From: Candidatus Latescibacterota bacterium
Lineage (GTDB): Bacteria > Latescibacterota > UBA2968 > UBA8231
Length of the DNA stretch: 64,000 nucleotides
Assembly (NCBI GenBank): GCA_965200315.1
Contig: OZ241362.1
Span: 4,736,001 to 4,800,000, forward strand
Direction of reading: 5' to 3'
Shown: in pieces, positions 6,416 to 46,749 of the stretch
Layout: each line of letters opens with the position of its first letter
Position numbering within the stretch: position 1 is the first letter of the stretch
Notes under the pieces: model-generated
Told to the model about the DNA's origin: nothing
The model's database searches: none
The model's input: only the letters and a program-made list of their open reading frames with translations
Translations under genes and position numbers: made by a program

Positions 6416-6425
6416 TGCGGCCTCC

Positions 6426-7109
6426 TTATCGGTTTGGATAACCGAGACAGCCTAATGACAGCAAAACAAATAAGAGCATTCCGTCAATAGTCGCAGCTAT
6501 ATGGCCCGATGATTGCGTCGCAAGTTCGAGGTTTTGCAGCAGCCTTTGCCACTGATCGACATCGTTTGTAGGTGGAACGCTGCCGCTCAGGACGCGGCCA
6601 AAATAATCGCGCAAATGACGCTGGTCGAGCGAATCGAGTGCCGGGCCGGGGACGGGCTTTAAGCCGTAGCGGAACACGCCGCCCTGTAGGTAGAGCCGTT
6701 CCTCTTCCTCGCGGCCCGCAGCGCGCGTAGTCGTTCCGACGCGCACCTGAATAATCCAATGGCCTCCGCGCTTGGCTTTGTATGGTTTATCCGGCGCATC
6801 CCGCGGAAGAGATATAATGCCGACAATTTTCCCGTTTCCCCAATCCACGGTCTCCCAATAGGGAATCGCCGCTGGCAAGACGTGGGTACGCGCCGTTTCC
6901 ATTACCCATTCTTCGACCTTGCGCGGCTCTCGGCTGAGGCCGGAAATCGACCCATCGTCCTCGACGCCGAGTACGATGTACCCGCCTTCCAGATTGAGTA
7001 GCGCTGCGATTTCCGTGGCGAGTTGTTCCGGGCGGAGATCGGCGCGCTTGAACGCCACGCCGGAGTTCTCGCCATTGCGAATTAGTTCGATCAAATCGGC
7101 TTTGTTCAT
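6426..7109 (-). pseudogene. Schlafen/AlbA_2 protein, C-terminally truncated
   Basis: GENSGVAFK...IAALLNLEGGYIVLGVEDDG; the reading ends shortly after ATIDGMLLF, where full-length members normally continue into HATPase and HTH domains. Confidence 0.7.
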
Positions 7110-7121
7110 GGTGCTTCAGAT

Positions 7122-23562: not shown

Positions 23563-23578
23563 TTTTCCGGAGGAGTCC

Positions 23579-25309
23579 ATGCAGGGTCTGTTGTTGTGCT
23601 TGGTGGGGGTGCTGTTGGTCGGCTGTGGAGACGGAGGGCACAAGAATGTGCCGCGGAGCCGGACCTTGGTCATGGATTGTTCCAGCTTGCAAGACTGTAG
23701 CGGGCAGATCAAGGACTACAACTCGTTTAACCCGTTTTTGCTGACCGGCGTTTCCAAGACGGGTTGGAACTTCCAGTACGAGCCGCTGTATTTCTACAAC
23801 GCGTACAGCCTGCAAGCCGACAACATCATCCCTTGGATCGCCACCGGGCACGAGTACAACGAAGACTACACCGCGGTCACCATCCACATCCGCGAGGGAG
23901 TCGAGTGGAGCGATGGGCAGCCGTGGACGGCGCACGACTTGGTCTTTACGATCAACATGCTCAAGGACCACGCGCCGCATCTGTCTTTTTCCACGGATAT
24001 GCAGACGTGGGTAAAAAGCGCGGTGGCGACTGACGATCACACGGCTAAAATCGCGCTGACCAAGCCCAATCCGCGCTTTGTCTTCAGCTACTTCACCAAC
24101 AACTTTGACAACGGCATCCCCATTGTACCCAAGCACATTTGGGCGGGCCAAGACCCACAGACGTTCAACAACTTCGACCCGGAAAAAGGCTGGCCCGTGG
24201 CCAGCGGCCCATACGAGATTCTCATTTCTGTGCCCGCGCAGCGAGTGTGGGATTTGCGCCCGGGCTGGTGGGCGCAAAAGACGGGCTTTCGCCAGCCGCC
24301 GGCCGTGGAGCGCATCATCTACCTGACGCACATGGAGGAGACCAAGCGAGTGCAGAACTTGATCTCCAATGCCATGGATACCTGCCTCGACATCCGGCCG
24401 CCGAATATACAGTCGATTCTCGACGCCAATCCCAACGTCTCTACGTGGACCGGGCGCGAGCTGCCGCTCGGGTATCTCGACTGGTGGCCGGTGTGCTTGG
24501 GATTCAACAATTTGGAGCCGCCGTTTAACGACCCGGAGATCCGCCGCGCCATCAACTACGCCATTGACCGCGACCAATTGGTGGCCATTGGCTGGCAGGG
24601 AGCCGGGACCAAATCGCATCTGCCGCTACCGGACTTCCCGCCCATCCGCCAATACACCGACGCGATTCAAGACTTGGTGGAAAAGTATGAAATCGGCGTC
24701 CACGACCCGGCCAAAGCCGCGGCGATTATGGAGCGCAAGGGGTGGCGCAAGGACGCCGAGGGCTTTTGGACTAAAGAGGGCGAGCGGCTCAAAATCGTCA
24801 TTGACATTTTCGACATTTTCGCCGACTTAACGCCGGTTTTGGTGGCGCAGTTGGAACGCGCTGGTTTCGACGCTGACTTCCGCATGACGCCCGATGCGTT
24901 TTCGCGCATGGCGCAGGGCGCGGCGCGGGCTTTCTTAATGGGCAATGGCGCGAGCGTACGCGATCCGTACTTCACCTTGCGGCTCTACCACAGCCGTTTC
25001 GTCCGCCCCACCGGCACGCACTCCGAGCGGTTTTGGCGCTGGTCGAACCCGGAGTTTGACGCGCTGGTCGATCAGATGGGGCAGACTGCGCCCGACGACC
25101 CGGCGCTGCAAACGCTCTTCCGCGAGGCCATGGAAATCTGGCTGGCCGAGTTGCCCGCCATCCCCATCGTTCAGTGGTATCACCGCATCCCACACAATCA
25201 GACCTATTGGCAGAACTGGCCGTCGGCGAAAAACCCGTATATCAACAGTGCCTACTGGCACAACACGTGGCTGTTGGTGTTGCTCGGGCTGGAGCCGGTG
25301 GGGGGATAG
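23579..25309 (+). CDS. ABC substrate-binding lipoprotein, family 5
   Basis: GGAG RBS, LVGC lipobox, IREGVEWSDGQPWTAHD, PFNDPEIRRAINYAIDR. Confidence 0.92.
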   Translation: MQGLLLCLVGVLLVGCGDGGHKNVPRSRTLVMDCSSLQDCSGQIKDYNSFNPFLLTGVSKTGWNFQYEPLYFYNAYSLQADNIIPWIATGHEYNEDYTAVTIHIREGVEWSDGQPWTAHDLVFTINMLKDHAPHLSFSTDMQTWVKSAVATDDHTAKIALTKPNPRFVFSYFTNNFDNGIPIVPKHIWAGQDPQTFNNFDPEKGWPVASGPYEILISVPAQRVWDLRPGWWAQKTGFRQPPAVERIIYLTHMEETKRVQNLISNAMDTCLDIRPPNIQSILDANPNVSTWTGRELPLGYLDWWPVCLGFNNLEPPFNDPEIRRAINYAIDRDQLVAIGWQGAGTKSHLPLPDFPPIRQYTDAIQDLVEKYEIGVHDPAKAAAIMERKGWRKDAEGFWTKEGERLKIVIDIFDIFADLTPVLVAQLERAGFDADFRMTPDAFSRMAQGAARAFLMGNGASVRDPYFTLRLYHSRFVRPTGTHSERFWRWSNPEFDALVDQMGQTAPDDPALQTLFREAMEIWLAELPAIPIVQWYHRIPHNQTYWQNWPSAKNPYINSAYWHNTWLLVLLGLEPVGG

Positions 25310-25390
25310 CGGCGCATGTCTGATGCGCTTCGTCTAGATGGGGCCGTGGCTTAGTGCAGGCGAAACCGCGCCAACGTCGGAGAAGGCTTA

Positions 25391-25486
25391 ATGAATATAG
25401 ACCAGTTAAGTGAACAACTATCTGGGATTAGAGATAAGGGATATGTTGTTTCATTGAGGAAAGGTAACAGAGTACAAATACTATGA
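25391..25486 (+). pseudogene. 31-aa stub of an MvaI/BcnI-family restriction endonuclease
   Basis: MNIDQLSEQLSGIRDKGYVVSLRKGNRVQIL*, AT-rich; stop overlaps the methyltransferase ATG (ATGA). Confidence 0.55.
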
Positions 25487-26730
25487 TAGACACGAACTGT
25501 AAATACAAAGATGAAGCCTGGGATTTCAGAAAAACGGATACCAAGGAATATACTCACTGTTTTCACAATTATCCCGCGATGATGATTCCCCATATTGCCA
25601 GGAATCTCTTAGAGCGATATGGTAGTACAGGTGGATGGTTGTTAGATCCTTATTGTGGTACTGGTACATCCTTGGTAGAGGCATCTATATTTGGAATGAA
25701 TGGCATTGGATGTGATATAAACCCCCTCATGAGACTGGTCGCAACAGCTAAGACCTCGCCGCTCTCTCTACAAATCCTTGATTTTCATTTGAGGGATTTA
25801 GATAACACTATCTTTCAAGCTGGTTTCTCTAATAAAATACCTCATACGCCAGTCCCTGATGTCCTAAATCTGGACTATTGGTTCTCTGAAGATGTTACGA
25901 CGTACCTGTCTTTTCTTCGCTCGTACATTTACGCGATAGAAGATGAAGGAGTTCGCAATTTCTTTTGGGTTGCATTTTCAGAGACAGTTCGGGAGTGTTC
26001 CTACACGAAGAATAGCGAGTTCAAATTAAACAGAATATCGTCTCAGAAAATGAAAAATTTCAAGCCGGATGTTTTCGGTATTTTACAGAACAAGCTAAGA
26101 CGAAATCGGTTGGGTTTTGGCAATTATCTAAACAAAAGAAAAAATGTCGATATGTTTGTTTCGGGTAAGAATACTGCAAATGGCGAATTGCCCGAAAAGA
26201 AACCGTTGAGGGGTTTCGATTTGGTCGTCACCTCTCCGCCTTATGGCGACTCACAAACAACCGTTGCGTATGGGCAATTTTCGCGTTTATCGGCTGATTG
26301 GATCGGCTTACTTGATTCTCGCAAAGTTGACCGAATATCAATGGGAGGTAAAAAAAAAGAAAGGAGATTGTGTGCGTCTCCAGTTGCGGAGGCCATTAGA
26401 AAAATCCGTGCAGTGGATGAAAAACGCGCTATGCAGGTCGAGGCATTTTACATTGATTTAGAGCATAGTATAAATTGCATCGCGCCACTGCTCAAAAAAC
26501 ATGCAACGATTTGCTATGTAGTTGGTAATCGTCGGGTTAAAGATGTTATTCTGCCGACAGACGAGTTTGTTGTTTTTGCCTTCGCTCAGCATGGATTTTC
26601 TCATCGAAAAACCATCGTTAGGAATATACCTAATAAACGCATGCCGCAAAAGAACAGTCCTTCCAACATTGTGGGTAGGACGGCTACCACGATGCAAGAG
26701 GAAAACATCGTTATTTGTCAACGGCTGTGA
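25483..26730 (+). CDS. N4-cytosine DNA methyltransferase, M.MvaI-like (alpha class)
   Basis: THCFHNYPAMMIP, motif I DPYCGTGT before motif IV TSPPY; markedly AT-rich relative to flanks. Confidence 0.88.
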   Translation: MIDTNCKYKDEAWDFRKTDTKEYTHCFHNYPAMMIPHIARNLLERYGSTGGWLLDPYCGTGTSLVEASIFGMNGIGCDINPLMRLVATAKTSPLSLQILDFHLRDLDNTIFQAGFSNKIPHTPVPDVLNLDYWFSEDVTTYLSFLRSYIYAIEDEGVRNFFWVAFSETVRECSYTKNSEFKLNRISSQKMKNFKPDVFGILQNKLRRNRLGFGNYLNKRKNVDMFVSGKNTANGELPEKKPLRGFDLVVTSPPYGDSQTTVAYGQFSRLSADWIGLLDSRKVDRISMGGKKKERRLCASPVAEAIRKIRAVDEKRAMQVEAFYIDLEHSINCIAPLLKKHATICYVVGNRRVKDVILPTDEFVVFAFAQHGFSHRKTIVRNIPNKRMPQKNSPSNIVGRTATTMQEENIVICQRL

Positions 26731-26876
26731 TTAAATTAGTCGTAGAGATCATGCGCGTTATGGCGTTGCGAAAAGTCGAAGCTGAGCCGCGCCGACATCG
26801 TTCGCTAAGTAGAGGATCGACGGCCTCAGCGTAGCTTTGGAGCGGCTGCGCGACAGCGGATAAAAGGAGGACAACT

Positions 26877-27743
26877 ATGCGCTATCGGCGATTGGGGCGG
26901 ACAGAGTTGCAAGTGAGCGCGGTCAGCCTAGGAGGGGCCTACTTGGGGGGCAAGGAGCCCGAGTGCGCCGAGGAAAACGCCCGGGCAATTGTGCGGCGTG
27001 CGTTGGATTTGGGCTGCAATTACATCGATACGGCCCCGCTCTACGGGGCTAGCGAAGAGTTGCTGGGCAAGGCACTGGCCGGGGAGTGCCGCCCCTTTTA
27101 TTTGGCGACCAAGGTAGGGTTTAAGCCGGAAGGCTTTGACTACCGGCGCGATTCGGTCTTGCAGAGCTTGGAGCGCAGCTTGGCCTTGCTGGGCCTAGCT
27201 AAGTTGACGGTGGCACAGATCCACGAAGTGAACATGGCGGGCTGGGAGCGGATCGTGGAAAAGGGCGGCGTGTTGGAAGGGTTGCGCGCCGCGCAAAAAC
27301 AGGGGCTGTGCGATTTTATCGGCGTGACGGGCCGGGCCATCCCCCTGTTGGCGCGGCTGGCGGCGACCGGAGAATTTGATACGGTGCTGTGCTATCACGA
27401 CTATCATCCCTGTGTGCAGTTGGCGGCGGACGAGGTGTTGCCAGCGGCGGCAGCGAGTGATATGGGTGTGGTGCTGGCAACGGTGCTGGCTGGGGGTATG
27501 TACGTCGCTGGCGAGAACCAGCACGTGGCGGTGGAGCGTCGGTTTGAGCGCGAGGAAGAGCGACAACGCGCTTGGGCGACAATTGCCCGGCTGGTTCAGG
27601 AGGAGTCGACGCTGCCGCAGAGCGCGTTTCGCTGGGTCTTAGCCGACGAGCGGGTAACGACTGTGGCCAGCGGCGCGGCGAGCGTGGCCGAGCTGGAGGA
27701 AGTGGCGCAGGCCGGGGATATGGAACCGCTGATGAGCGGGTAG
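26877..27743 (+). CDS. Aldo/keto reductase
   Basis: AAGGAGG RBS; YRRLGRTELQVS, IDTAPLYG, ATKVG. Confidence 0.92.
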   Translation: MRYRRLGRTELQVSAVSLGGAYLGGKEPECAEENARAIVRRALDLGCNYIDTAPLYGASEELLGKALAGECRPFYLATKVGFKPEGFDYRRDSVLQSLERSLALLGLAKLTVAQIHEVNMAGWERIVEKGGVLEGLRAAQKQGLCDFIGVTGRAIPLLARLAATGEFDTVLCYHDYHPCVQLAADEVLPAAAASDMGVVLATVLAGGMYVAGENQHVAVERRFEREEERQRAWATIARLVQEESTLPQSAFRWVLADERVTTVASGAASVAELEEVAQAGDMEPLMSG

Positions 27744-27755
27744 GCCGCGGTCGGG

Positions 27756-28373
27756 TCAGAGCTTGATGACGGCGATGAGGACGCCAGTGATGGCCACCAA
27801 AGTGCCCATCATCCACAGGAAATAGGTGTCCATGCGCTGGTGGACGGCGCGGATCTGCTCGCCTAAGTCGCGGTTGGTGTCGTCAATGCGGCTGCCCAAG
27901 TCGCGGTTGGTGTCGTCTATGCGCTGGTGGACGGCGCGGATCTGCTCGCCCAAGTCGCGGTTGGTCTCGTCAATGCGGTTGCCCAAGACGCGGTTGGTCT
28001 CTTTGAGGCCATCATTCAATAAGCGGTTGGTGTCGTCTATGCGCTGGTGGACGGCGCGGATCTGCTCGCCTAAGTCGCGGTTGGTGTCGTCAATGCGGCT
28101 GCCCAAGTCGCGGTTGGTGTCGTCTATGCGCTGGTGGACGGCGCGGATCTGCTCGCCCAAGTCGCGGTTGGTCTCTTTGAGGCCATCATTCAATAAGCGG
28201 TTGGTCTCGTCCATGCGCTGGTGGACGATTCCTATTTCGGTGCGCAGACCTTGAATGTCGTCGTGCGATTGGGTGCGCAGACCTTGAATGTCGTCGTGCA
28301 GATAGCTAATACTCCAAGGCATTTCTTCGGGGGTGGGGATCGCACGGGTTTGCCGATCGGCACTTTCGCTCAT
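27756..28373 (-). CDS. Hendecad-repeat coiled-coil protein with C-terminal membrane anchor (DUF1640/CCDC90-like architecture)
   Basis: CAGGAG RBS; 11- and 18-aa repeats RIDDTNRDLG(S/EQIRAVHQ); hydrophobic tail FLWMMGTLVAITGVLIAVIKL. Confidence 0.8.
   Translation of the reverse strand: MSESADRQTRAIPTPEEMPWSISYLHDDIQGLRTQSHDDIQGLRTEIGIVHQRMDETNRLLNDGLKETNRDLGEQIRAVHQRIDDTNRDLGSRIDDTNRDLGEQIRAVHQRIDDTNRLLNDGLKETNRVLGNRIDETNRDLGEQIRAVHQRIDDTNRDLGSRIDDTNRDLGEQIRAVHQRMDTYFLWMMGTLVAITGVLIAVIKL
27830..28299. repeat. In-frame tandem repeats of 33-bp and 54-bp modules
   Basis: Near-identical units such as ATGCGCTGGTGGACGGCGCGGATCTGCTCGCC (4 copies) and GGTGCGCAGACCTTGAATGTCGTCGTGC (2 copies). Confidence 0.9.
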
Positions 28374-28459
28374 GGTTACGCTCCTGTATCAGGCGAGGGT
28401 AGGGAAAATATAAACCGAGTGCTAAAAACTACCAACAGGCGGCTTTTATACATGCCTAA

Positions 28460-28475
28460 TGCAATATCTGTGCCA
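28460..28475 (-). promoter_or_regulatory. Sigma54 (-24/-12) promoter
   Basis: Minus strand reads TGGCAC-AGATA-TTGCA, matching TGGCAC-N5-TTGCW, 86 nt upstream of ATG 28373. Confidence 0.7.
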
Positions 28476-28575
28476 GCGCCGATAGTCTGATAAGGCGGCT
28501 TGGGATCGGCGCACCTTGGGTCGAATAGTATCCATCAATGGGTACTAAGAGACTCTAAGAAGCATGGTACGTTTC

Positions 28576-29628
28576 TTAGATCCACCCATGCTGAGTGGTT
28601 ACGGGTGCGCCGGAAGTTTGGGTCTGCCAATGCGGCTTGCGGCCTATTTTGACCTCGCGGCGGGTGAGGGACGAGGCTTCGGCCGCGAAGAGGATTTCCA
28701 TGATGTGCCGCCCGTATTGGCCGTGAGTCGGCGGCTCGATGTTGAGCGCGATGGCCTCGGCAAAGCGCTGCCACTCGTGGTACATTTCGCTCGGCGCGTT
28801 TTCAAACGGGACGTCTTCCCACGTATCGCCCTGGCCTATTTTGACGTACTTCTCGCCGTGCTGGCTGAAGCGCAGCGAGCCGTTGGCGCAGATCACTTGG
28901 CATTCAAAATTCGGCGCACCGTCTGCAAACCCCACAGCCACGGCCGTGCCGGCGAGGCCGTTTTTGTAGCGGATAAAGGCCGTGGCTGAATCGTCGCTGG
29001 CTTGGTAGTGCGCACGAGTGCCAATGGCGGCTGAGACCGACGCGGCTTGCGACGCCATCACCCACGTGAGCCGATCGACGACGTGAACGCCGTTGGTCAA
29101 CCACATGCCGCCGCCGTGGAAGCGGCTGCGGTATTGGGGCCGCCGACCGGCGAAATTCCAGTTTTTCGACATGTAGCTGACCGCCGTAATCACCGGGCCG
29201 AGCTGGCCAGAGTCGAGGATTTCCTTGGCCTTGAGGCTGGTGCTGTAAAAGTGCTGCGACAGCCCGACCATCAGCTTGACGTTGTTTTCGGCGGCCGCGG
29301 CGACCATGGCGTCGCATTGCGCTAGGTTGATGGCCATGGGCTTTTCGACGAGTACGTGCTTGCCGGCGCGGCAGGCGTCGATGGTGAGCTGGTGGTGCAA
29401 TTGGTGGCCGAGCACGACGGCGACCGCATCGACGTCGGCATCCTCTAAGAGTTCGTGGTGCGTTGGGTAGCCCTTGGGGATGTGGTATTTGTCCATGTAC
29501 TCGCGCCGCTTTTCTTCCAATAGATCGGCGACTGCTACTACTTCTACTTGGTCGAGATGGGCGATTGCATCGCAGTGGGAGCGGGCGATGCCGCCGAGGC
29601 CAATGATGCCGACTTTGAGCGCTGCCAT
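28576..29628 (-). CDS. Gfo/Idh/MocA oxidoreductase
   Basis: KVGIIGLGGIA, HVLVEKPMA, GGGMWLTNGVH; start MAALK. Confidence 0.92.
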   Translation of the reverse strand: MAALKVGIIGLGGIARSHCDAIAHLDQVEVVAVADLLEEKRREYMDKYHIPKGYPTHHELLEDADVDAVAVVLGHQLHHQLTIDACRAGKHVLVEKPMAINLAQCDAMVAAAAENNVKLMVGLSQHFYSTSLKAKEILDSGQLGPVITAVSYMSKNWNFAGRRPQYRSRFHGGGMWLTNGVHVVDRLTWVMASQAASVSAAIGTRAHYQASDDSATAFIRYKNGLAGTAVAVGFADGAPNFECQVICANGSLRFSQHGEKYVKIGQGDTWEDVPFENAPSEMYHEWQRFAEAIALNIEPPTHGQYGRHIMEILFAAEASSLTRREVKIGRKPHWQTQTSGAPVTTQHGWI

Positions 29629-29738: not shown

Positions 29739-31682
29739 ATGCCCGGTAATTTTACCTATCGCTCGTTCGCCGTGGGTGCGTTGCTATCGCTGGCGATCAA
29801 CATGTTCTTCGCCTATGCGCGGCTGGCGATGGCCACCGCCGGCATGTCCTCCGATTACATCACCGCTGGGGCGGTTTTCCTGTTCTTCCTGGTGGTGGCT
29901 TTTGTCAATCCCGCACTCAAGTTGATGCGCCGTTCTTGGGGCTTTAACCGCTCCGAATTGATTGTCATCTACGCGATGATGATCATTGGCTCGGCCATTC
30001 CCACGTGGGGCTTTACGGGCAATTTGATCGCCATGTTGCCCAACATCTACTACTATGCCACGCCCGAGAACAACTGGTCGGAGTTGTTGCATCCTTATGT
30101 CCGCGAGTGGATGGTGCCGCAGGATCCAGACGCGATCAAGTACTTCTTCGAGGGCCTGCCCAAGGGACAACCCATCCCTTGGGAACACTGGATGGTGCCG
30201 CTGGCGGCTTGGGTCTCGTTTATTGTGGCGATTTACCTGATGATGATCGCCATCGCGTCAATCGTCCGCCGCCAGTGGGTCGACTACGACCGCTTAACCT
30301 TTCCGCTGTTGCAGCTACCCATCGACCTGACCGAAGAAGGCAAGAGCGGGTCCATCGTCGGTCCGCTGTTCAAAAGGCCGCTTTTGTGGATCGGGTTCGC
30401 GCTGCCTGTTGTGCTGCACAGCACCAACGCCTTAAACCACTATTTCCCCTTTATCCCGGCAGTGCAGTTGCGCCACAGCATCTCGCTGTTTAACCACGCG
30501 CTGGGGCTGACGACCAATGTGAACTTTGTGGCAATAGGGCTGGCGTACTTTTTGAGCTTAGACGTGGGGTTGAGCATCTGGCTCTTCCACTTGTTGACCA
30601 AAGCTCAGATCACCACTGAGAACGTCCTCGGCTACTCGCTGCCTGGTCGCCGCGACCTGTTTATGGAAGGCTCGATGTCGGTGTCCTACGAGGGGATGGG
30701 GGCCATGCTGGTGCTGGTGCTTTACGGGCTGTGGAACAGCCGCAGCTACCTGCGGCGGGTTTGGCGCAAGGCCCTGTACAACGAGGGGAGATTGGACGAT
30801 TCGCAGGAGATTCTCTCGTATCGGGCGGCGCTCATCGTCTTGGTCTTGGCCAGCGCGTACGCTACCGGCTGGCTGATCTTATCGGGGGTGCCGTGGTGGG
30901 TCGCGCTGTTTTTCCTCTTCGTCGCCTTCTGCATCTTCTACGGGCTGACGCGCATAGTCGCCGAGGGGGGGTTGGGTTTTGCGCGGGCGCAGATGACGGC
31001 GCAGCCGTTTGTGATTGACGCGGTGGGCACGGAGGCGATAGGTCCGTCGGGGCTGGTGAGCTTGGGGATGACCTTTAGCTGGGCGGGCGATCTGCGGACG
31101 ATGGTGATGACCTCGGCGATCAATGGGCTCAAGCTTGCCGATATTGGCAAAGTGCGGGGACGGCCGCTGTTTTGGGCGCTGATGCTCTCGATTGTGGTCG
31201 GCTTGACTGGGTCCATATGGATGGTGGTGTGGATGGGATATCAGTACGGGGGCATCAATTTGGATTGGTGGTTCTACAACCGCTTCGGCGAAATAGTCCA
31301 CGGCGACTCGGCCTACAAGATCGCCAACCCAAGGCATCCCATAAGCGACTTTGGTGAGATCGGGCCGCGCTTCTTGTTCGCCGGAATCGGCGCGGGGATC
31401 ATGGGGCTGTTGATGTACGCCCGGCATCACTTTCTCTGGTGGCCGGTGCATTACCTCGGCTTCCCCATCGGCGCGACCCTGACGATCATCTGGACGTGGT
31501 TCAGCATTTTCATCGGCTGGGTCCTCAAAGCCTTGGTGCTCAAATACGGCGGCGTGACGCTCTATAGGCAGCTGCGGCCGCTGTTTTTGGGATTGATTCT
31601 GGGGCATATTTTTGTGTCGGGCTTCTGGGTGCTCTTCGACTATGTCACCGGGGAGACCGGCAATCGGATTCCGATTTTTTGA
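29739..31682 (+). CDS. Polytopic membrane protein, DUF6785/DUF6784-like (OPT-related putative transporter)
   Basis: Many TM helices; YYATPENNW, QWVDYDRLTFPL, WWPVHYLG, KYGG...RPLFLGLILG. Confidence 0.8.
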   Translation: MPGNFTYRSFAVGALLSLAINMFFAYARLAMATAGMSSDYITAGAVFLFFLVVAFVNPALKLMRRSWGFNRSELIVIYAMMIIGSAIPTWGFTGNLIAMLPNIYYYATPENNWSELLHPYVREWMVPQDPDAIKYFFEGLPKGQPIPWEHWMVPLAAWVSFIVAIYLMMIAIASIVRRQWVDYDRLTFPLLQLPIDLTEEGKSGSIVGPLFKRPLLWIGFALPVVLHSTNALNHYFPFIPAVQLRHSISLFNHALGLTTNVNFVAIGLAYFLSLDVGLSIWLFHLLTKAQITTENVLGYSLPGRRDLFMEGSMSVSYEGMGAMLVLVLYGLWNSRSYLRRVWRKALYNEGRLDDSQEILSYRAALIVLVLASAYATGWLILSGVPWWVALFFLFVAFCIFYGLTRIVAEGGLGFARAQMTAQPFVIDAVGTEAIGPSGLVSLGMTFSWAGDLRTMVMTSAINGLKLADIGKVRGRPLFWALMLSIVVGLTGSIWMVVWMGYQYGGINLDWWFYNRFGEIVHGDSAYKIANPRHPISDFGEIGPRFLFAGIGAGIMGLLMYARHHFLWWPVHYLGFPIGATLTIIWTWFSIFIGWVLKALVLKYGGVTLYRQLRPLFLGLILGHIFVSGFWVLFDYVTGETGNRIPIF

Positions 31683-38859: not shown

Positions 38860-40782
38860 TCAGTAATAGTAAAACGCATAGACCAGCGCTGCCCCGCCAA
38901 CGCCGACGCAGGTGCCCAAGATCAGGCCGATGAAGAAGGGCAGCAAGGTGCGGTAGAGCCGGATGCCGCCGTAGCGCAGGGCTAGGAGTTTGATCAGCCA
39001 AGCCAAGAAAATTCCGAACCAGTCGATAGAAACGGTGTTGGTCAGGGCGATGCCCAGCCCCACCGGGTGCAGAGGCCAGCCGGCGAAGCGGTACTGGGCC
39101 AGCGCGAGCAGCCCAGCGAGGCCAGCGCCGATGGCGAGGAACACGGCTACTAGCGGCTCGGCCGGATTGGGGTTGTTGATCGAATTGGCGACCCAAGACC
39201 AGTGGTATTGTGGTGAGCTGACGAAGTACCAGCCGTAGCCGTGGAGCAGTCCGTGGCGGTATCCCAGCCATATATAGCAGACCATGGTGGTTATGAGGCC
39301 GGCGATCATGGCCGCGGACAAAAAGAGTACCAGCTTGCGCCCGCTGATCTTGAGCCGAGCGGGTTCGCAGACCTTGAAGGCGTGGGCGAGGGTGCCCATC
39401 AAAAAGAGCTGCAGGTCGGCCGTCCAGACCATGCTCAGCCCCATCGCGCTCAGCCCTTGGGCCCCAAAAGGGGCGGTGCCCACGAGATTGGTCAAAATCG
39501 GCGGCACGGAGGCCGGAGCGCGCAGACGGCCGATCCCGGTCTGGGCCAACAGGCGGGCAATGCCAAAGAAGATCACCAGCGCGACCAGCAAAAAGACGAT
39601 GCTCCAGACCAAACTCAAGCCGCTGGCCCAAAGGAAGCCAGTCATGTACGTCAGCCCGACCAGTCCGAGCAGAGCGGCGACACGCGGCGAAATCGGGCTG
39701 TCGCGGCTTGGGGCACCGCCGATGATCAGCCGCCACTGGCGACGCAGGAAGTCGCGCGACATCCACAGCGAAATCCCGACGATGCACACAAGCGAGCCAA
39801 TTTGCTGATGGGCTAGCAGCACGTTGGGTGGTGAGTGGGGCTGGGCCGGTAGCGATAGGGCAACGCCTAGCCAGTTGAGCAGTGCGCCTTCGGCGGCGAT
39901 GAGTATGTGAAAAAACCAGACGCTGAACAGCACGTTGAGGCCGACCAGATAGCTCAAGCCCACGACCAGCAGGTCGGTGTTAAGCCCGTAACTAAGCCCG
40001 AACTGACGAATCTCAATGCGACCGCCGGGAATGCCGAAGCCGTGGATGATCTCGATATCTAACACTCGGTCGAGCATGTTGACGGTTGGCAATGCCCAAG
40101 CGATGAGAAACCCCAGCCACAATAGCTTGCTTTTGAGAACGGACGCGGTGGGGTTTTCCAAGCTCTCGAGGAGCATGTTGGGGACGGCGGCAAGGGGATA
40201 CACCAAGCGCTCTTGGCGCGACCACTGGTGATGGACGAGGCTGATTAGGGCGATGCTGACCAAGAAGAAGGCCAGCATGAAGAGGTCCCACCACACGAGC
40301 GGCCCGGCCCACAAGCCCCAAGGCACGGGTGCGGCGGCCTCAGTGCCTTCAAAAAGCTGGCGGATCGCTTCGAGGTCGCGGGGGACGGCCCAGTGGGGGA
40401 TGTGCGGCCAGAGCAGGTCGGACCAGTTGTTTTCTGGGGTGGCGTAGTAAAAGACACCGGCAATGAGCGGGATGAAATAGCCGCCAAAGCCCATGGAAGG
40501 CAGCACCACGGCGACCATGAGCGCGGCATAGACCAAGGCGAAATTGGCTGGCGAGAGGCGCAAGAGCGGGTGGAGCAGGCGCAGCGCGAGGGCGACGACC
40601 ACGAGCCAGAAAATTAGGAAGATGACGCCGACGGTGTTGAAGTGATCGGTCAGCCCAGTGTAGCTTCCATAGAGAACGTAGGTCCGCACACTGGTAAAGG
40701 TCATGCAGACGGTAAAGACTAGGACGAGGCCGAAGGAGAAGCAGGTGCCGAGGAAGGAAGTGGTTGTAGGGAGACGGGGCAT
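38860..40782 (-). CDS. Second DUF6785/DUF6784-like membrane protein
   Basis: Shares YYATPENNWS, QW...ERLVYPL, WPLHPVG, RYGG...PFFIGLILG with 29739-31682. Confidence 0.8.
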   Translation of the reverse strand: MPRLPTTTSFLGTCFSFGLVLVFTVCMTFTSVRTYVLYGSYTGLTDHFNTVGVIFLIFWLVVVALALRLLHPLLRLSPANFALVYAALMVAVVLPSMGFGGYFIPLIAGVFYYATPENNWSDLLWPHIPHWAVPRDLEAIRQLFEGTEAAAPVPWGLWAGPLVWWDLFMLAFFLVSIALISLVHHQWSRQERLVYPLAAVPNMLLESLENPTASVLKSKLLWLGFLIAWALPTVNMLDRVLDIEIIHGFGIPGGRIEIRQFGLSYGLNTDLLVVGLSYLVGLNVLFSVWFFHILIAAEGALLNWLGVALSLPAQPHSPPNVLLAHQQIGSLVCIVGISLWMSRDFLRRQWRLIIGGAPSRDSPISPRVAALLGLVGLTYMTGFLWASGLSLVWSIVFLLVALVIFFGIARLLAQTGIGRLRAPASVPPILTNLVGTAPFGAQGLSAMGLSMVWTADLQLFLMGTLAHAFKVCEPARLKISGRKLVLFLSAAMIAGLITTMVCYIWLGYRHGLLHGYGWYFVSSPQYHWSWVANSINNPNPAEPLVAVFLAIGAGLAGLLALAQYRFAGWPLHPVGLGIALTNTVSIDWFGIFLAWLIKLLALRYGGIRLYRTLLPFFIGLILGTCVGVGGAALVYAFYYY

Positions 40783-41119
40783 GGACGAATTGCGAGTTAA
40801 AATAAAAAAATGAGCTTCTTTATATCTTTAATTAAGAGAATAAATGAGGGGAGCGTAGGCAATGATGCACAGATACAGCATCTCGCCCCGCACTTGGCAA
40901 GCCTTAACACGGGCACAAAAAACGCTTGACTTGGAGGGATTCCCTATATGCAATTATCTAAATATACAGAAGTTATCCTAATACATAGCTGATTGTCGAG
41001 GCATTAGAGGCTTATAAACTCCTGATTCAAGACGCGCTCGATTTCTTAACGATTGTTGAGGCATGTCCAGCAAAGCCGTTATGAAACTGTATCGACTCCT
41101 TCACCCATAAGCAAAAGCC

Positions 41120-42526
41120 GTGAAGAGAAATTCTTTGCCAAGTATGTTACCTAGACCAGTCGGGCGGCAACGAGAGGTCTTGTACCTCCCAGCTGATGGC
41201 CATACAGTAGTGCTCGGTACCGCTGGGAGCGGCAAGACGACGCTCTCTATTCTCCGCGCTCTTTATTTGTCTGATCTGTCCACAGACCACGGTGGGCGGA
41301 CGCTGCTGGTGACGTTCAACCGATGTTTGGTCACCTATATGGAACATCTGGCTGGAACAATTCAGCGACCTGTGGACGTCCGAAATTATCATCGCTTTGC
41401 ATTGGGTTATCTCAACTACAGAGGCAAATTGCCACCGGAGAGCATCTGTAGCCCCGAAGAACGGTTGCGCTATATAAGGCTTGCAGTGAGCCAAGCGCGA
41501 GCCGATGGTGTCCAGAGTCCGATGCTACGACGTTCAGAGGAATTCCTCAATGAAGAGTTCCAATGGATTCAGCAGCATGGTATTGCGAGCAAGGAGGATT
41601 ATGTCGCGGCGGAACGTATAGGCCAGATGGCAACCCGAGTTACAAGAGATGAGCGCCCTTTACTATTCGATCTTTACAATCGATACTTGAATCAGCGGCA
41701 GCAAGGCGGCAAGTCGTACGACTGGGACGACCTCGCCAGTACCGTACTCCGAGAGCTTCAGTTCGACCAGAGTAAACGCCTCTATCGCCACGTAATTATT
41801 GACGAAGGCCAAGACTTCTCGCCCGAGATGCTGCGCTCACTCGCAGCAGCCATACCAGAAAACGGAAGTCTCACTTTCTTTGGTGATATTGCTCAGCAGA
41901 TATACGGGCACCGGATGTCTTGGCGAAGTGCTGGACTTACTGCGACGAATGTCTGGCTATTTAAGGAAAACTACCGCAACACCAAGCAGATTTCCCAACT
42001 CGCGCTCGCGCTCGCAGCCATGCCCAATTTTCCGGATGATCCGGACTTGGTCGAGCCAACGGCTCCGGTTGCCGACGGGCCATCTCCGGCACTTGTGCCG
42101 CTGGCAAGCGAGTCGGAAGAGCGAGAATTTGTCGTTTCGCGAGCGGCCGAATCAGCCCAGACGGGAACAGTTGCCATTTTGTTCAGGACGCGAGATCAAG
42201 AGAGGGCTTTTCTACAGCACCCCCCAAGCGAGGCGACGCGGTTCGATCGTGAACTGAAACAATGGCTAAGTGGTCCGGGGCTTTTCTATGGCACATATCA
42301 CGCAGCCAAGGGGCTGGAGTTTGATACAGTGTTCCTGCCGCTCCTGTCGGACAAATGTTGGCCCCATCCGCCCGACGTTGAACTTTTGGGGGAACAAGAA
42401 GCGGCGGCCCGAAACTCGCGCCTTCTTTACGTTGGGATCACGCGGGCCAGATCGACGCTCGTACTCACATACTCGGGGTGCAGGACGGCACTCTTACCGG
42501 AAACAACAGGGCTGTATCAAGAATGA
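41120..42526 (+). CDS. Compact SF1 (UvrD-like) helicase
   Basis: GTAGSGKT, IIDEGQD, GDIAQQIY, ENYRNT, TYHAAKGLEFD, LLYVGITRAR; alternative start ATG 41144. Confidence 0.92.
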   Translation: MKRNSLPSMLPRPVGRQREVLYLPADGHTVVLGTAGSGKTTLSILRALYLSDLSTDHGGRTLLVTFNRCLVTYMEHLAGTIQRPVDVRNYHRFALGYLNYRGKLPPESICSPEERLRYIRLAVSQARADGVQSPMLRRSEEFLNEEFQWIQQHGIASKEDYVAAERIGQMATRVTRDERPLLFDLYNRYLNQRQQGGKSYDWDDLASTVLRELQFDQSKRLYRHVIIDEGQDFSPEMLRSLAAAIPENGSLTFFGDIAQQIYGHRMSWRSAGLTATNVWLFKENYRNTKQISQLALALAAMPNFPDDPDLVEPTAPVADGPSPALVPLASESEEREFVVSRAAESAQTGTVAILFRTRDQERAFLQHPPSEATRFDRELKQWLSGPGLFYGTYHAAKGLEFDTVFLPLLSDKCWPHPPDVELLGEQEAAARNSRLLYVGITRARSTLVLTYSGCRTALLPETTGLYQE

Positions 42527-43233
42527 CCGAGACGATAGCTTCGATACAGGCCAGCGCGGTGTGCCGAGGAATCACACGCCTTTGCCATTTCACGCCTTCT
42601 CACAATCTTGGACACATCGCAGAGGATCGCGTAGGGATTCTCGCCTCGAAGCATCTTGGGGAGAATGAAAAGGCTGTCTTCAATCCGACGGACTCAGGGC
42701 GCCTAGATGGTTATCCAGACCATGTGTGCTGCTCGATCCAGTACCCGAACGCTTGGTACTTCAGAAAAGCTCGCAGTCGGGGACCGCTATTTCGAGATTG
42801 GGTCATACTTCTAATCAAGCCTCGATACCTGTGGCAGGCTGGCGCGAAGTTCTGTCCCCGCAATGCGGCGGCCGAGCACGGGAGGCTTGTCAATGAAGGT
42901 GCAAAGGCATTCGAGGAGTTATTTGCCGACACCGGCGAAAGTACTTGCACGTACAGGCGTGACCGTCTTCATCCTGATTTCCTTCCTACCGACGAACAAG
43001 CCGAGGTGTTGATTCCGGATCACATCCGACGGGTAGATGTGATCGGCATCGCTGTTTGCGATGACGCACAGGCCCAACGGGAAGTGGCTCGGCTGAAGCT
43101 ACTTGGCCAGAGTCTATCACCGATCTTGATTGTTCCCGAGTTTTTCGACCCGAATAAGCTCAGTCAATTGCTACGTGCTGGTCGGGTTCCGGTCGAGCGC
43201 GAGCATCAACAAGGAGACCCTCATGGCCGATAA
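42523..43233 (+). CDS. darT: DarT (DUF4433) ssDNA ADP-ribosyltransferase, DarT1-like
   Basis: LCHFT..NL, D..RLDG, CCSIQYPN, FCPRNAA, PTDEQAEVL (catalytic Glu); ATG 42523 overlaps the helicase stop. Confidence 0.85.
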   Translation: MTETIASIQASAVCRGITRLCHFTPSHNLGHIAEDRVGILASKHLGENEKAVFNPTDSGRLDGYPDHVCCSIQYPNAWYFRKARSRGPLFRDWVILLIKPRYLWQAGAKFCPRNAAAEHGRLVNEGAKAFEELFADTGESTCTYRRDRLHPDFLPTDEQAEVLIPDHIRRVDVIGIAVCDDAQAQREVARLKLLGQSLSPILIVPEFFDPNKLSQLLRAGRVPVEREHQQGDPHGR

Positions 43234-44890
43234 CAGCGATAGCCAAGCGTACGAACCGATCTTGCCGTTGCAGGCCAAAGCCGAGGGTGCCTTTCTTGCG
43301 CTCGCTGCTGGCGACGCGCTGGGCTGGCCCCAAGAAATAGCTCGAAACGTCCAAGGCAACCCTAAGAACAAAGGGGCACATGTAGAGTTCAAGGGATGGA
43401 CCCGGCGCAGTGGTGGGCGATTACGATCCTATGAGGAAAATATCTACGCCGGAAACTACAGCGACGATACGCAACTTACTCTCGCGGTCGCACGGAGCAG
43501 AACGGACCATGGCCTTGAATGGTGGAAAGCGTTTACGAAGGTGGAACTTCCGCTCTGGACGCTGTACGAACGGGGCGGGGGTGGGGCCACGAAGCGCGCG
43601 GCTAAAGCATGGGGCGAAGGTACATCTCCTTGGATGTCGGACAAGAACAATGGTGTTCGCCGATACTTTGAGGCTGGCGGCAACGGGGTCGCCATGCGTG
43701 TCCTACCCCATGCCTTGTTTCTCGCTGGGCAGGAAGATCCCGCCGACCTTATGTACGATGTCATTCTCGACGGCTTGGCTACCCATGGCCATCCTCGCGC
43801 ACTCGTCGGAGCAACCGTATATGCCTATGCCGCGTGGGTGCTGACCCGCAGGAGTGGTACGCTCCGGTTTGGCGAATTACTAGATATGCTGATTGATGCG
43901 TCACCTATATGGAGCAAATTCCCCAAGTCGGATCGCGATGGCGGGACTTGGTTTCCGGCCGCTAAAGGTGCGATAGGCGATCGGTACGAGTTGATTTGGG
44001 ACCAAACGATTGAGGAGATGCGAGAGTTACTCGCGAAAGCGCAAAGAGGGGTCCAAGCTGGTGCGCTCGCGGACGACCATGTGGTCTTGAAAGAACTAGG
44101 ATGTTTTGGTCGTTCTAAGGGTGCAGGAACCGTTAGCGCGGCTGCCGCCGTGTACCTTGTCGCACGGCATGCAGCACAGCCGGTACAGGCGATACTCAGA
44201 GCTGCCTTTGAGCAGGGCGCGGACACAGACACACTCGCGGCCATGACCGGAGGGCTGATGGGATGCTTGGCGGGTGTCGAATGGCTGCCGGCACCGTGGC
44301 TAAAAGTCCAGGATTCCGAATACCTCCGGAACATCGCCAGCCAAATTGCCTTAGGGCCGGACGGCGCGTCCCAGCATCCTGTAGAACCTCTTGCAAACCC
44401 TCAAGCTATCTTCTCTGACCTTGCTCGGAACGGAGACCGCGAAGTAGTCCTTGGCGGCTTAGAACGAGTTCGGGCAACGCCTCTGCCGATCCCAAAGCCA
44501 ATTGCCCGATCAATCACGGTCCAAGCATGGCAGCTAAAAACTTCCGATGGCCAGACCATGTATGTCACCAAGGTGGACCATTTGCGGGACGACAGGGCGA
44601 GCCATACGCTGGAGCCAACCCGTCCTACAACTCCCAAGCCAGCCAGCGCGAACGAGGCGGTGGAATCCGTTGGGGTCTCAAAGAACGCGCTCTACGTTGA
44701 GTTTTGCCGACAACTGCAAAGCCATCTAGAATCTAGGGCAATGAAAACCAAAGAAATAGAGAGTGCTTTGGACCTCGTTCCAAGCCAAGTCAAAAAATGG
44801 CTGAGCCGAGCCGAACAGGATGGACGGATTCGACGGATATCCAAAAAGCCCGCAGAATTCGCGCTATGTGACCAGAAGTTCCTGCAGTAA
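43223..44890 (+). CDS. ADP-ribosylglycohydrolase (ARH/DraG family) with C-terminal extension and wHTH
   Basis: AAGGAG RBS; GDALG, SDDTQ, GNGVAMR, THGHP, DTDTLAAMTG; C-terminal TKEIESALDLVPSQVKKWLSRAEQDGRI. Confidence 0.9.
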   Translation: MADNSDSQAYEPILPLQAKAEGAFLALAAGDALGWPQEIARNVQGNPKNKGAHVEFKGWTRRSGGRLRSYEENIYAGNYSDDTQLTLAVARSRTDHGLEWWKAFTKVELPLWTLYERGGGGATKRAAKAWGEGTSPWMSDKNNGVRRYFEAGGNGVAMRVLPHALFLAGQEDPADLMYDVILDGLATHGHPRALVGATVYAYAAWVLTRRSGTLRFGELLDMLIDASPIWSKFPKSDRDGGTWFPAAKGAIGDRYELIWDQTIEEMRELLAKAQRGVQAGALADDHVVLKELGCFGRSKGAGTVSAAAAVYLVARHAAQPVQAILRAAFEQGADTDTLAAMTGGLMGCLAGVEWLPAPWLKVQDSEYLRNIASQIALGPDGASQHPVEPLANPQAIFSDLARNGDREVVLGGLERVRATPLPIPKPIARSITVQAWQLKTSDGQTMYVTKVDHLRDDRASHTLEPTRPTTPKPASANEAVESVGVSKNALYVEFCRQLQSHLESRAMKTKEIESALDLVPSQVKKWLSRAEQDGRIRRISKKPAEFALCDQKFLQ

Positions 44891-44934
44891 AGATGTCCTT
44901 CCGAGTAGCAGTCAACCGTCGTTAGGGCGGTAAC

Positions 44935-46749
44935 ATGCCCCGCTGCGTAGCTAATTTTCATACTCCATACCTCGGCTGGCTCGTCTTCGCCCTCGCCCTC
45001 GCGGTGCGGGTCGCCTATATCCTCGAAGCAGATGCAAGTCCGCTTTTTGCACATCCGGCGGTCGATGCCAAGACGTACACCCACCACGCCCAGCGCTTGG
45101 CGGCGGGCAACTGGTTGGGCGTCGGCGAGGGGCCGTTTTGGCAGCCGCCGCTGTACCCGTACTTCCTCGGGGCGGTAAAGAGTCTTTTTCCAGAGTCATT
45201 TTTTTACGCCGTGCGCTTTGTGCAGGCTTTGCTAGGGGCGCTGGTCTGCGCGATGAGCTGGTGGCTCGGCCGCGCCTTGTTCAATCCGATGGTGGGGTTG
45301 CTGGCCGGGATTGGCGCGGCGCTGTGCGGGCCGCTGATCTTTTTTGACGGCGAGCTGTTGCCGGCTTCACTGGCCGCTTTCGTCGATCTGCTGGCCCTAG
45401 TGGTGCTTTTGCGCGTCTGGCGTCGTCCGAGCCGTTGGGGTTTTTTGGGTGCCGGGGCGGTCTTTGGCGTTGGTGCGCTGGCCGTGCCGACGGTGCTGAC
45501 TTTTGCGGTCGCCGTGCCCGTTGTCCTCTTGTGGCGTGCTCCCCGTCGGCCGGGTTTGGTCTGGGCCGGTGCGTTCTCGCTCGGAGTGGTTTTGGCTATC
45601 GCGCCGGTAGCTTGGCGCAACTGGGCCATCGGCGGCGACGGGGTGGGGATTTCCTACAACGCGGGGATCAACCTGTACATCGGCAACAACCCCGACTATG
45701 CAGAGACCGTGGCCATCCGCCCGGGGTGGGAATGGGACGATTTGGTCACCCAACCGGCGCGGGAGGGGGTTGAACAGCCCTCAGCTAAGTCGGCTTATTT
45801 TGCCTCGCGGGCTTGGGACTACATCCGCGGCGATCCGATTGGCTGGCTGGGGTTGATGGGGCGCAAGTTAGGGGCGTTTTGGCACGGCGACGAGCGAGGG
45901 CGCAACCAGCCGATCTACTTCTGGCGCACGTACTCCAAGGTGCTGTCGGCGACTCTGTGGAAAGCGGGCATTGCTTTCCCCTTTGGCTTGGTGGCCCCCT
46001 TGGCGCTGTGGGGCATGCTGCTGAGCGTGCGGCGGATCGGGCCGACGTGGCCGCTGCTATACGTGCTGTGCTATTGTCTGGGGGTGGTGGCGTTTTTTGT
46101 GGCGGCGCGCTACCGGGTGCCGGTGTTGCCGGTGCTCATAGCTTTTGCCGCCTACGGGTTGTGGGTGCTGTGGGACTGGGGACGAGCGGGCTGTGGGCGC
46201 AGCTTGGGGCTGGGGTTGGTTGTCTGCGCGGCCTTTGCGGTGGCGGCCAACAGCCATCTAGCGCCAATGGACATGCAAGGGGATGCGGCCATCCACTACA
46301 ATCTGGGCAATGCGTATGCCGAGGCTGGCGACAAAGAGCGGGCACTGGCGGCGTTTGAGCGGGCGGTGGCTGAGGACCCGGAGTACTGGCAGGCGTGGGT
46401 AAATCTGGGGGGGGTCAAGGCGGCACTGGGCGATATAGAAAGCGGTGGTGCCATTTTTGCGCGGGTGGCGCAAAAGGCCCCGCGGCAAGTCGAGCCGTGG
46501 ATGAACTTGGCGCACGTGCGGATCATGCAGGGCGATGCAAAAGGGGCGATACCAGCCTACGAGGCCGCGCTCGCGGCCAATCCGCGCCTCCTACCGGCCT
46601 ATGCGGAGATGATGGTCCTGTATGGACGGCTAGGTGCGCCCGCCGAGGCCGCCCGAGTGCTCAACCGCGCCGTGGAGCACCTGCCCGCCGAGCGCGAGCG
46701 GTTGGAGCGGCTATACGGACGGCTGCTCAAGGCGGCTGGACGACCTTGA
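44935..46749 (+). CDS. GT-C glycosyltransferase (PMT_2/GT39-like) with C-terminal TPRs
   Basis: VDAKTY, PPLYPYFL, NLYIGNN, RYRVP, multiple TMs, HYNLGNAY TPRs. Confidence 0.85.
   Translation: MPRCVANFHTPYLGWLVFALALAVRVAYILEADASPLFAHPAVDAKTYTHHAQRLAAGNWLGVGEGPFWQPPLYPYFLGAVKSLFPESFFYAVRFVQALLGALVCAMSWWLGRALFNPMVGLLAGIGAALCGPLIFFDGELLPASLAAFVDLLALVVLLRVWRRPSRWGFLGAGAVFGVGALAVPTVLTFAVAVPVVLLWRAPRRPGLVWAGAFSLGVVLAIAPVAWRNWAIGGDGVGISYNAGINLYIGNNPDYAETVAIRPGWEWDDLVTQPAREGVEQPSAKSAYFASRAWDYIRGDPIGWLGLMGRKLGAFWHGDERGRNQPIYFWRTYSKVLSATLWKAGIAFPFGLVAPLALWGMLLSVRRIGPTWPLLYVLCYCLGVVAFFVAARYRVPVLPVLIAFAAYGLWVLWDWGRAGCGRSLGLGLVVCAAFAVAANSHLAPMDMQGDAAIHYNLGNAYAEAGDKERALAAFERAVAEDPEYWQAWVNLGGVKAALGDIESGGAIFARVAQKAPRQVEPWMNLAHVRIMQGDAKGAIPAYEAALAANPRLLPAYAEMMVLYGRLGAPAEAARVLNRAVEHLPAERERLERLYGRLLKAAGRP

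Follow-up and report, generated by a model that had tools for sequence, protein, structure and literature searches.

DarHTG is an anti-phage toxin–antitoxin system that was catalogued as Liu-DS3 and given its present name by Liu et al. (Nucleic Acids Research, 8 April 2026, PMC13069673), whereas a preprint (bioRxiv 10.64898/2025.12.08.692795, 8 December 2025) calls its helicase TgaH and the system TgaH-DarTG. As described in the main text of Liu et al., it is composed of a UvrD-like helicase that lacks the 2B domain, the toxin DarT, and an antitoxin called DarG3, which resembles eukaryotic and archaeal ADP-ribosylglycohydrolases (ARHs), unlike the two known kinds of DarG. When cloned in Escherichia coli MG1655, DarHTG led to culture collapse upon infection with T7 at high multiplicity of infection and to retarded growth with T4, T5, and SSL_2009a. 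Defense was abolished by a mutation in the DarT active site, and likewise by one in the ATP-binding site of the helicase. A mutant of DarG3 could not be constructed, and the hydrolase behaves as an essential antitoxin. The same text reports the system from across phyla, most often from Thermodesulfobacteriota (~3.6%) and Bacteroidota (~2.6%). Here we analyze three adjacent genes of the same composition, encoding a superfamily 1 (SF1) helicase, a DarT, and an ARH, in a stretch of 64,000 nucleotides (hereafter the window) from a Candidatus Latescibacterota bacterium (assembly GCA_965200315.1, contig OZ241362.1, positions 4,736,001 to 4,800,000).

Because the architecture of this trio matches every point of the published main text, we consider it probable, at roughly 80%, that the trio belongs to the DarHTG (TgaH-DarTG, Liu-DS3) family and represents it in Latescibacterota. 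Four architectural features of DarHTG are present, namely the gene order, a UvrD-like helicase without a 2B domain, an intact DarT active site, and an antitoxin with the ARH fold. The type system comes from E. coli, and the copy in the window comes from a Latescibacterota genome. An initial annotation of the window, made from its letters alone, had proposed the trio as a candidate new system and had named prior cataloguing as an outcome that would speak against this. The helicase-DarT-ARH trio is already published as DarHTG, in both the paper and the preprint, and the finding itself is not new. The functional part of that proposal, in which DarT is the toxin, the ARH is a third kind of antitoxin, and the helicase is essential, agrees with the genetics of Liu et al., although it too is no longer new. 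Beyond these two reports, a literature search returned no other relevant paper on the trio. The terms “DarT3” and “DarG3” that appear in a Vibrio cholerae preprint proved to be artefacts of superscript reference numbers.

The first gene of the trio encodes a protein with Pfam matches to UvrD-helicase (5.5e-15) and UvrD_C (8e-19). Its motifs I to VI (GSGKT, TFN, DEGQD, GDxAQQIYG, NYRNT, KGLEFD, and VGxTRA) are invariant or nearly so in relatives, and its structure is predicted with a predicted local distance difference test score (pLDDT) of 86.7 and a predicted template modeling score (pTM) of 0.86. The best Foldseek matches of this model are UvrD (2is4, E 7e-19), PcrA, and Rep, with template modeling scores of 0.69–0.75 on the query and ~0.5 on the target. 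In a profile alignment, residues 173–367 of the query correspond to PcrA 167–373, and residues 376–453 then correspond to PcrA 550–624. The approximately 177 residues of PcrA that form its 2B domain (373–550) have no counterpart, and nine query residues span the gap. Judged from this alignment and the model, the protein is a UvrD-like SF1 helicase without a 2B domain. A relationship to the Gabija system (GajA-GajB) is not indicated, as models of GajB match this helicase only through the common UvrD motifs and no GajA-like gene is present beside it.

The second gene product matches the DarT family (PF14487, E 6.9e-15, 55.7 bits, cut-off 22.5) and carries the motifs H22-F23-T24, R60-L-D62-G63, C70-S-I-Q-Y-P-N76, and Q159-A-E161, all invariant or nearly so in an alignment of relatives. 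The only solved structure matched by sequence is DarT1 of E. coli C7 (8BAQ, E 4.4e-23), and no DarT2 structure was matched among solved structures at E<=1. We compared residues through the alignment to 8BAQ, with roles as assigned in Schuller et al. (Mol Cell 2023, PMC11543638), where the numbering of the PDB chain is one above that of the paper. The catalytic residues R52 and D54 and the catalytic glutamate E152 of DarT1 correspond to R60, D62, and E161; S63, described as mechanistically dispensable, corresponds to S71; N104, which holds guanine N2/N3, to N114; and Q150, which contacts the DNA backbone, to Q159. All six are invariant. At three further positions, M71 (catalysis) is replaced by Y79, K74 (which reads guanine N7) aligns with K82 at a position that is variable in the family, and Y75 (which reads guanine O6) is replaced by A83.

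Because the asparagine that binds guanine N2/N3 in DarT1 is invariant in these proteins, guanine N2 would be the most likely target base, an assignment to which we give roughly even odds. Set against this choice of base is the lack of conservation, in the subfamily of the window DarT, of the two residues by which DarT1 reads guanine O6 and N7 (K74 and Y75). DarT1 is inactive on double-stranded DNA (PMC11543638).

The toxin closest to the DarT of the window is DarT1 of the DarTG1 system; the two have in common the six catalytic-site residues (R, D, S, N, Q, and E), including the asparagine that holds guanine N2/N3, whereas the O6/N7-reading residues are not conserved. However, the antitoxin of DarTG1 is a NADAR protein, whereas that of the window is an ARH and no NADAR gene lies beside its DarT. 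DarTG1 also operates without a helicase, in contrast to the window system, whose DarT moreover carries ~65 additional C-terminal residues that have no DarT1 counterpart and are conserved within the subfamily. DarTG2, which pairs DarT2 with DarG, a macrodomain fused to a DarT-binding domain, resembles the system as read here in that reversible ADP-ribosylation of DNA is directed against phages, and both antitoxins have a non-catalytic C-terminal part. Nevertheless, the trio of the window has no macrodomain, and DarT2, which is specific for thymidine and for sequence, was not detectable by sequence among solved structures in the search with the window DarT. In E. coli K-12, a search with the DarT profile found no DarT of the helicase-linked kind.

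The third protein is an ARH by Pfam (ADP_ribosyl_GH, E 5e-37, 128.5 bits) and retains the metal-binding motifs S80-D81-D82 and D334-T-D336-T337, with D81, D82, D334, D336, T337, and E38 invariant. Its model (pLDDT 86.2, pTM 0.78) matches ARH3 (6g1q, 1.4e-9), the archaeal protein MJ1187 (1t5j, 4.3e-9), DraG, and the immunity protein Tri1. The last two, which are found among both the fold and the sequence matches, belong to systems (DraT-DraG and Tre1-Tri1; 6DRE/6DRH) that combine an ADP-ribosyltransferase with a reversing enzyme of the ARH family, as proposed for the window. Unlike the window pair, these systems act on protein arginine, their transferases are not DarT-like, and they include no helicase.

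No NADAR or macrodomain match was found in the trio with Pfam at E<=0.1, and the extension of the ARH beyond its catalytic domain is too small and has the wrong shape to conceal either fold. The genome, which is 94.7% complete and in one contig, also gave no match to NADAR (PF08719), in a search whose control matched in 3 of 14 genomes. Its only Macro open reading frame (ORF) encodes a standalone protein of 182 aa and is located 2 Mb from the trio. Given the absence of NADAR and the distance of the sole Macro ORF, we recognize no eraser other than the ARH. The bond hydrolyzed by both DraG and Tri1 is N-glycosidic and involves a guanidino nitrogen, so that it would be chemically reasonable for an ARH to act on guanine-N2-ADP-ribose.

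Beyond the catalytic domain, the ARH of the window has a small conserved middle domain, a disordered linker, and a C-terminal winged helix-turn-helix (wHTH), and we found no description of C-terminal modules of DarG3 in the main text of Liu et al. The wHTH matches the C-terminus of the PADLOC model for the PsyrA antitoxin (2.4e-7). PsyrA is an antitoxin partnered with a helicase-containing toxin. Only this wHTH of ~70 aa is common to PsyrA of the PsyrTA system and the window ARH, and the remainders of the two proteins are unrelated.

The initial annotation had suggested that the hydrolase is guided by its wHTH, and this is not supported as a feature of the family. All 28 relatives in an alignment of ARHs match ADP_ribosyl_GH in Pfam, and 16 of the 28 match Glyoxalase/VOC, with the wHTH of the window’s clade giving only weak matches (FaeA, MarR, TrmB, and AbiEi_4). 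When hidden Markov models built from the same alignment were applied to 46 unique full-length ARH ORFs from metagenomes, a count that is hence partly circular, 42 ended in a VOC domain, one in a wHTH, and three in neither, whereas the middle domain was kept in 46 of 46. A search of the ESM Atlas with residues 385–555 gave no usable match. The wHTH form was found in Latescibacterota loci and in two Bryobacterales loci, and it is probably also the form present in the best 120 full-length relatives (at least 60% identity, 93–100% coverage). The wHTH is a minority form among the metagenome relatives, and we infer that it is a swappable accessory module and not the core of the mechanism.

The linkage of the three genes extends well beyond this genome, and their order, with its translational coupling, is conserved across phyla. 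Of 1,530 candidates that were scored, 960 are DarT relatives at E<=1e-3, and a cluster-representative library searched with the DarT profile gave 2,701 at this threshold and 187 at E<=1e-30. Metagenome contigs were scanned with DarT as the anchor, which yielded 116 relatives; 80 loci were retained. A near-full helicase gene lies directly upstream of DarT in 53 of the 55 loci whose upstream sequence reaches 1,450 bp or more, and an ARH gene lies directly downstream in every one of the 54 with at least 1,250 bp on that side. Once duplicates had been removed on the basis of their DarT DNA, 43 of 48 complete loci were left, and 37 of these share the 4-nt overlap between helicase and DarT genes. 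The same trio is present in a Leifsonia genome (43/44/34% identity) and on replicons of Ralstonia, Streptomyces, and Rhodococcus.

On these replicons, the helicase is annotated as such or as a “3′-5′ exonuclease,” DarT as DarT or hypothetical, and the ARH as ADP-ribosylglycohydrolase or hypothetical. For example, RefSeq lists the DarH-type helicase on the plasmid of Streptomyces sp. NBC_01220 (L021, 2655–3998) as a “3′-5′ exonuclease,” and the Ralstonia trio appears as a helicase and two hypothetical proteins. The helicase-DarT-ARH system so far goes unrecognized in public annotation. Plasmid records include 31 that match DarT, six of them covering at least 80% of it, and the four plasmid matches that were inspected are large replicons or unannotated.

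Some relatives appear to be decaying. A Bryobacterales contig (L015, ~5793–7683) carries an ARH-wHTH gene 54% identical to that of the window, preceded only by a fragment matching DarT 168–233. There is no helicase gene within 5.8 kb upstream of it, and the locus has the appearance of an orphan antitoxin or of a system that has decayed. Locus L028 (3763–5920) has a helicase remnant of 25 aa and a short ARH (~460 aa), and in L067 the helicase gene is split; DarT looks intact in both. Within the phylum, 44 of the 168 genomes searched have a DarT-family gene of some kind. These are mostly canonical DarTs (Pfam E ~1e-60) and not of the helicase-linked kind (E 1e-14 to 1e-19), and several congeners, such as G022 and G007, carry both.

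Within the genus, the trio behaves as an accessory island. Of 24 other genomes of the genus, 5 encode a close homologue of its DarT, whereas a search of 16 genomes from outside the genus returned none. We compared 26 orthologous DUF6785 loci from the genus, of which 6, including that of the window, contain the trio, 19 are empty, and one is cut by a contig edge. At occupied sites the trio separates the DUF6785 gene from the PMT/TPR gene, whereas at empty sites the two genes stand back to back, with a spacer of 55 bp at locus L115. The island replaces this 55-bp divergent promoter region of empty sites (window positions 44891–44974 and 40759–40782) and contributes coding sequence to both neighbors, namely the initial 8 codons of DUF6785 and ~13 codons of PMT/TPR. 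Because three empty sites (L105–L107) retain a homologue of the leader (73–78% identity) and one occupied site (L122) lacks it, the leader is a separately variable piece. The proteins of the five congeneric trio copies share 81–89% identity with those of the window over their full length, compared with 94–95% for the flanking proteins.

Both forms of the site also coexist within samples. We mapped contigs from four runs of one study, labelled “sponge metagenome,” onto the region, and the contig depths that follow are rough. The two DNA runs, X1 (possibly the run from which the DNA of the window derives) and X5, each contain an island-bearing contig (40729–45003) and a joint in which 93 other letters connect 40758 to 44974. 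Depths in run X1 were 97.6 for the island, 52.6 for the joint, and 144–155 for the flanks; the corresponding values in run X5 were 16.3, 26.3, and ~40. This suggests that the island is carried by about two thirds of the population in X1 and about two fifths in X5. Presence and absence of the island among genomes, together with the coexistence of both forms within samples, fits a defense gene.

We know of no solved DarT-helicase complex. A complex was predicted in a three-chain job with custom alignments that comprised the helicase, residues 380–555 of the ARH, and DarT as the scored partner. DarT docked on the helicase with an ipSAE of 0.65 (0.61, 0.66, and 0.65 in individual runs), whereas the best of three controls, including one in which the helicase was replaced, gave 0.00. 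Of 80 solved complexes, 58 reach the ipSAE mark, as do 2 of 110 mismatched pairs; this calibration was made on single-chain pairs with other alignments and holds only roughly for a three-chain job. At least 75% of contacts agree among runs, and the partner pLDDT is at least 73. The predicted contacts involve helicase residues 10–25, 45–57, and 277–279 and DarT residues 25–31, 89–92, and 182–194, the last of which lie within the subfamily-specific tail. The same model showed no confident contact between DarT and ARH residues 380–555, which is evidence neither way.

These predictions support binding of DarT to the helicase. A point against this docking is that the interface is conserved no better than background, with values of 0.61 versus 0.54 for the rest of the helicase and 0.70 versus 0.69 for DarT. 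Fused genes among the 150 best representatives weakly favor it. Specifically, P0311 (689 aa) is a helicase followed by DarT, with 30% identity to the window helicase over its full length, and P0286 (789 aa) has the reverse order, DarT followed by a DarH-like helicase whose motifs II and VI look degenerate. Each is a singleton on one contig. The usual gene order cannot give DarT followed by helicase, and P0286 is therefore not the product of a read-through error. Fusions of DarT and ARH exist as well. Fused forms in public data are represented by P0311, P0286, P0251, P0260, P0376, P0322, and P0368, several of which are cut by contig ends.

If the trio is a DarHTG system, its mode of action might be as follows. 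In uninfected cells, DarT would mark bases of single-stranded DNA (ssDNA) with ADP-ribose, most likely at guanine N2, and the ARH would remove the mark as long as the cell is healthy, acting as a type IV antitoxin. The predicted complex places DarT against the N-terminal 1A face of the helicase; by opening duplex DNA, this ATP-driven, 2B-less enzyme could provide ssDNA to a toxin that uses no other form. During infection, marking of fast-replicating phage DNA would outrun erasure, replication would stall, and the cell would abort or arrest. The end module of the ARH may be regulatory, with the wHTH used for autoregulation of the operon or for tethering to DNA.

We speculate further that DarT docks through its C-terminal helix (182–194) on the 1A face to form an ATP-driven “unwind-and-tag” machine that marks duplex phage DNA, that cleavage of base-linked (N-glycosidic) ADP-ribose on DNA by the ARH would be without precedent among enzymes of its fold, and that the middle domain and the swappable end module (wHTH or glyoxalase/VOC) set when erasure stops. 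This combined proposal is tentative, and we would give it distinctly less than an even chance. We found no mention of an unwind-and-tag, first-DNA-ARH, or swappable-module reading in the main text of Liu et al.

Several observations weigh against assigning the trio to DarHTG or against the activities proposed for it. Homology to the E. coli proteins is drawn from architecture alone. PADLOC-DB 2.0 (2023) holds no model for the system, and a search with it returned only a weak DarT match (2e-5) and generic GajB/UvrD matches. A blastn search of the trio in distant mode against 5,426 complete E. coli genomes gave no match, which is expected at such divergence and says little. In the main text of Liu et al., the evidence for DarG3 is genetic only, and the table of erasers in PMC12945103 (February 2026) lists no ARH that removes ADP-ribose from a DNA base. 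The neighbors of the trio are membrane, sugar, and transport genes, which places this copy outside any defense island. No DarT relative was found by tblastn in 50,697 phage records, nor among IMG/VR viral contigs, and an origin of the trio in phages, like one in plasmids, was considered and dropped. Finally, in two metatranscriptome libraries of one study (X4 and X6) the trio is present in fragmentary contigs at a depth of 3–10, and this is not counted as transcription, since carry-over of DNA is possible.

One alternative to defense is that the trio is a housekeeping regulator, in which reversible ADP-ribosylation of DNA slows replication or adjusts expression under stress and the helicase serves in repair or bypass. 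Such a role is described for DarTG in Mycobacterium tuberculosis (PMC12170906), and it would suit a trio whose single, fixed position on the chromosome lies among housekeeping genes, where neither an integrase nor a further defense gene is nearby. However, 19 of 26 orthologous sites lack the island, as does part of the population within individual samples; such a pattern would not be expected of a core regulator. The trio proteins also diverge faster than their flanks. The published E. coli system, moreover, defends against phages (PMC13069673). The two roles are not exclusive, but as a replacement for defense we regard the housekeeping role as unlikely. It is less likely still that the trio is an inactive relic, that is, a decaying toxin–antitoxin island without present function. 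Decayed relatives such as L015 and L028 lend this idea some substance, yet the copy in the window has three uninterrupted frames and a full set of intact catalytic motifs, and the five congeneric copies remain similar over their full length. We consider a relic highly improbable.

A different question is whether the ARH, instead of being the antitoxin of DarT, might remove ADP-ribose from proteins, either to counter phage ADP-ribosyltransferases or with the helicase as its substrate, leaving DarT to be checked by binding or by its expression level. The characterized enzymes DraG, ARH1, ARH3, and Tri1 all act on protein- or phosphate-linked ADP-ribose (PMC12945103), and Aravind’s group describes ARG-centered systems that have no linked transferase and are proposed to counter viral ADP-ribosylation. 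Against a protein-directed role, the ARH adjoins the DarT subfamily in all 54 loci noted above, mostly in overlapping frames, and is in some cases fused to DarT. The failure to clone a DarG3 mutant in E. coli (PMC13069673) also points to an antitoxin, and the bond cleaved by DraG and Tri1 would be chemically close to one at guanine N2. A protein-directed ARH is therefore an account that we find quite improbable, and the assignment of the trio to DarHTG, with the ARH as candidate antitoxin, remains our preferred reading.

The coordinates of the locus are collected in Table 1. What the initial annotation had described at this level is confirmed: the three genes are intact and overlap (ATGA at 42523–42526; 11 nt at 43223–43233), the ribosome-binding site is in place, the motifs of all three proteins are present, the toxin is DarT1-like, and neither NADAR nor macrodomain is found in the trio. 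For the helicase gene, an alternative ATG start at 41144, directly before a conserved LPxP motif, is equally plausible as the GTG. The low GC content and the unrelated flanks were also described correctly. GC is 0.557 in the trio versus 0.601 in the window, and 25 of 302 same-size windows have a GC content at least as low, 9 of which overlap the island. The dip is modest, yet real.

Table 1. Coordinates of the trio, its parts, and its surroundings (nucleotide positions in the window; residues of the ARH where stated)
Feature	Position	Strand	Description
Accessory island (leader and three genes)	40759-44973	.	presence/absence segment, 4,215 bp
AT-rich leader upstream of helicase gene	40783-41119	+	GC 0.412
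UvrD-like SF1 helicase gene (DarH type)	41120-42526	+	468 aa, GTG start, no internal stop
DarT1-like ADP-ribosyltransferase gene	42523-43233	+	236 aa, frame open throughout
AAGGAG ribosome-binding site of ARH gene	43211-43216	+	inside DarT gene, 6 nt before ATG
ARH gene, DarG3-type antitoxin candidate with C-terminal extension	43223-44890	+	555 aa, frame open
ARH catalytic domain	43268-44350	+	residues 16-376, metal-binding SDD and DTDT, pLDDT mostly >90
ARH small middle domain	44399-44581	+	residues 393-453, one helix and four strands, conserved
ARH disordered linker			residues 457-486, from the model
ARH C-terminal wHTH	44687-44866	+	residues 489-548, helix-helix-helix-strand-strand, pLDDT ~90
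DUF6785/DUF6784 membrane protein, flank	38860-40782	-	unrelated to trio
PMT_2 and TPR glycosyltransferase, flank	44935-46749	+	unrelated to trio

The leader contains no convincing sigma-70 promoter; the whole region has 2 such sites versus 2.1 expected, and none is located upstream of the helicase gene. A comparison of the leader to Rfam gave no family at E<=1, and its repeats are short and weak. There is no other defense gene among the nearby genes and no integrase inside the island. At the other end, the PMT/TPR gene starts 44 nt past the ARH stop with no terminator between, and a promoter-like site is present at 44704–44732. In island-bearing cells, the PMT/TPR gene may be transcribed from within the island. 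In the contigs of the RNA libraries X4 and X6, and not in those of the DNA runs, position 41667 is joined to 42324, which skips 656 nt of the helicase gene. This joint is probably an assembly artefact, as its shorter side has only 30 letters.

Elsewhere in the window, a second stretch of equally low GC extends from 22600 to 29400, especially from 25483 to 26730. It holds oligopeptide ABC-transporter genes and an ORF of 415 aa with a partial match (residues 10–81) to N6_N4 DNA methylases. The DUF6785/DUF6784 membrane protein that flanks the trio has a paralogue 7 kb away (29739–31682), and genomes of the genus have 1–5 matches to this family.

The trio of the window would extend DarHTG to an uncultured phylum, in runs labelled as sponge metagenome, and the polymorphism of its island within single samples fits ongoing gain and loss under phage pressure. 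It also offers two leads. One is the predicted complex of DarT with the helicase, and the other is the modular tail of the antitoxin, in which a wHTH or a VOC domain follows a conserved middle domain. Each is relevant to the question of how a toxin–antitoxin system came to depend on a helicase.

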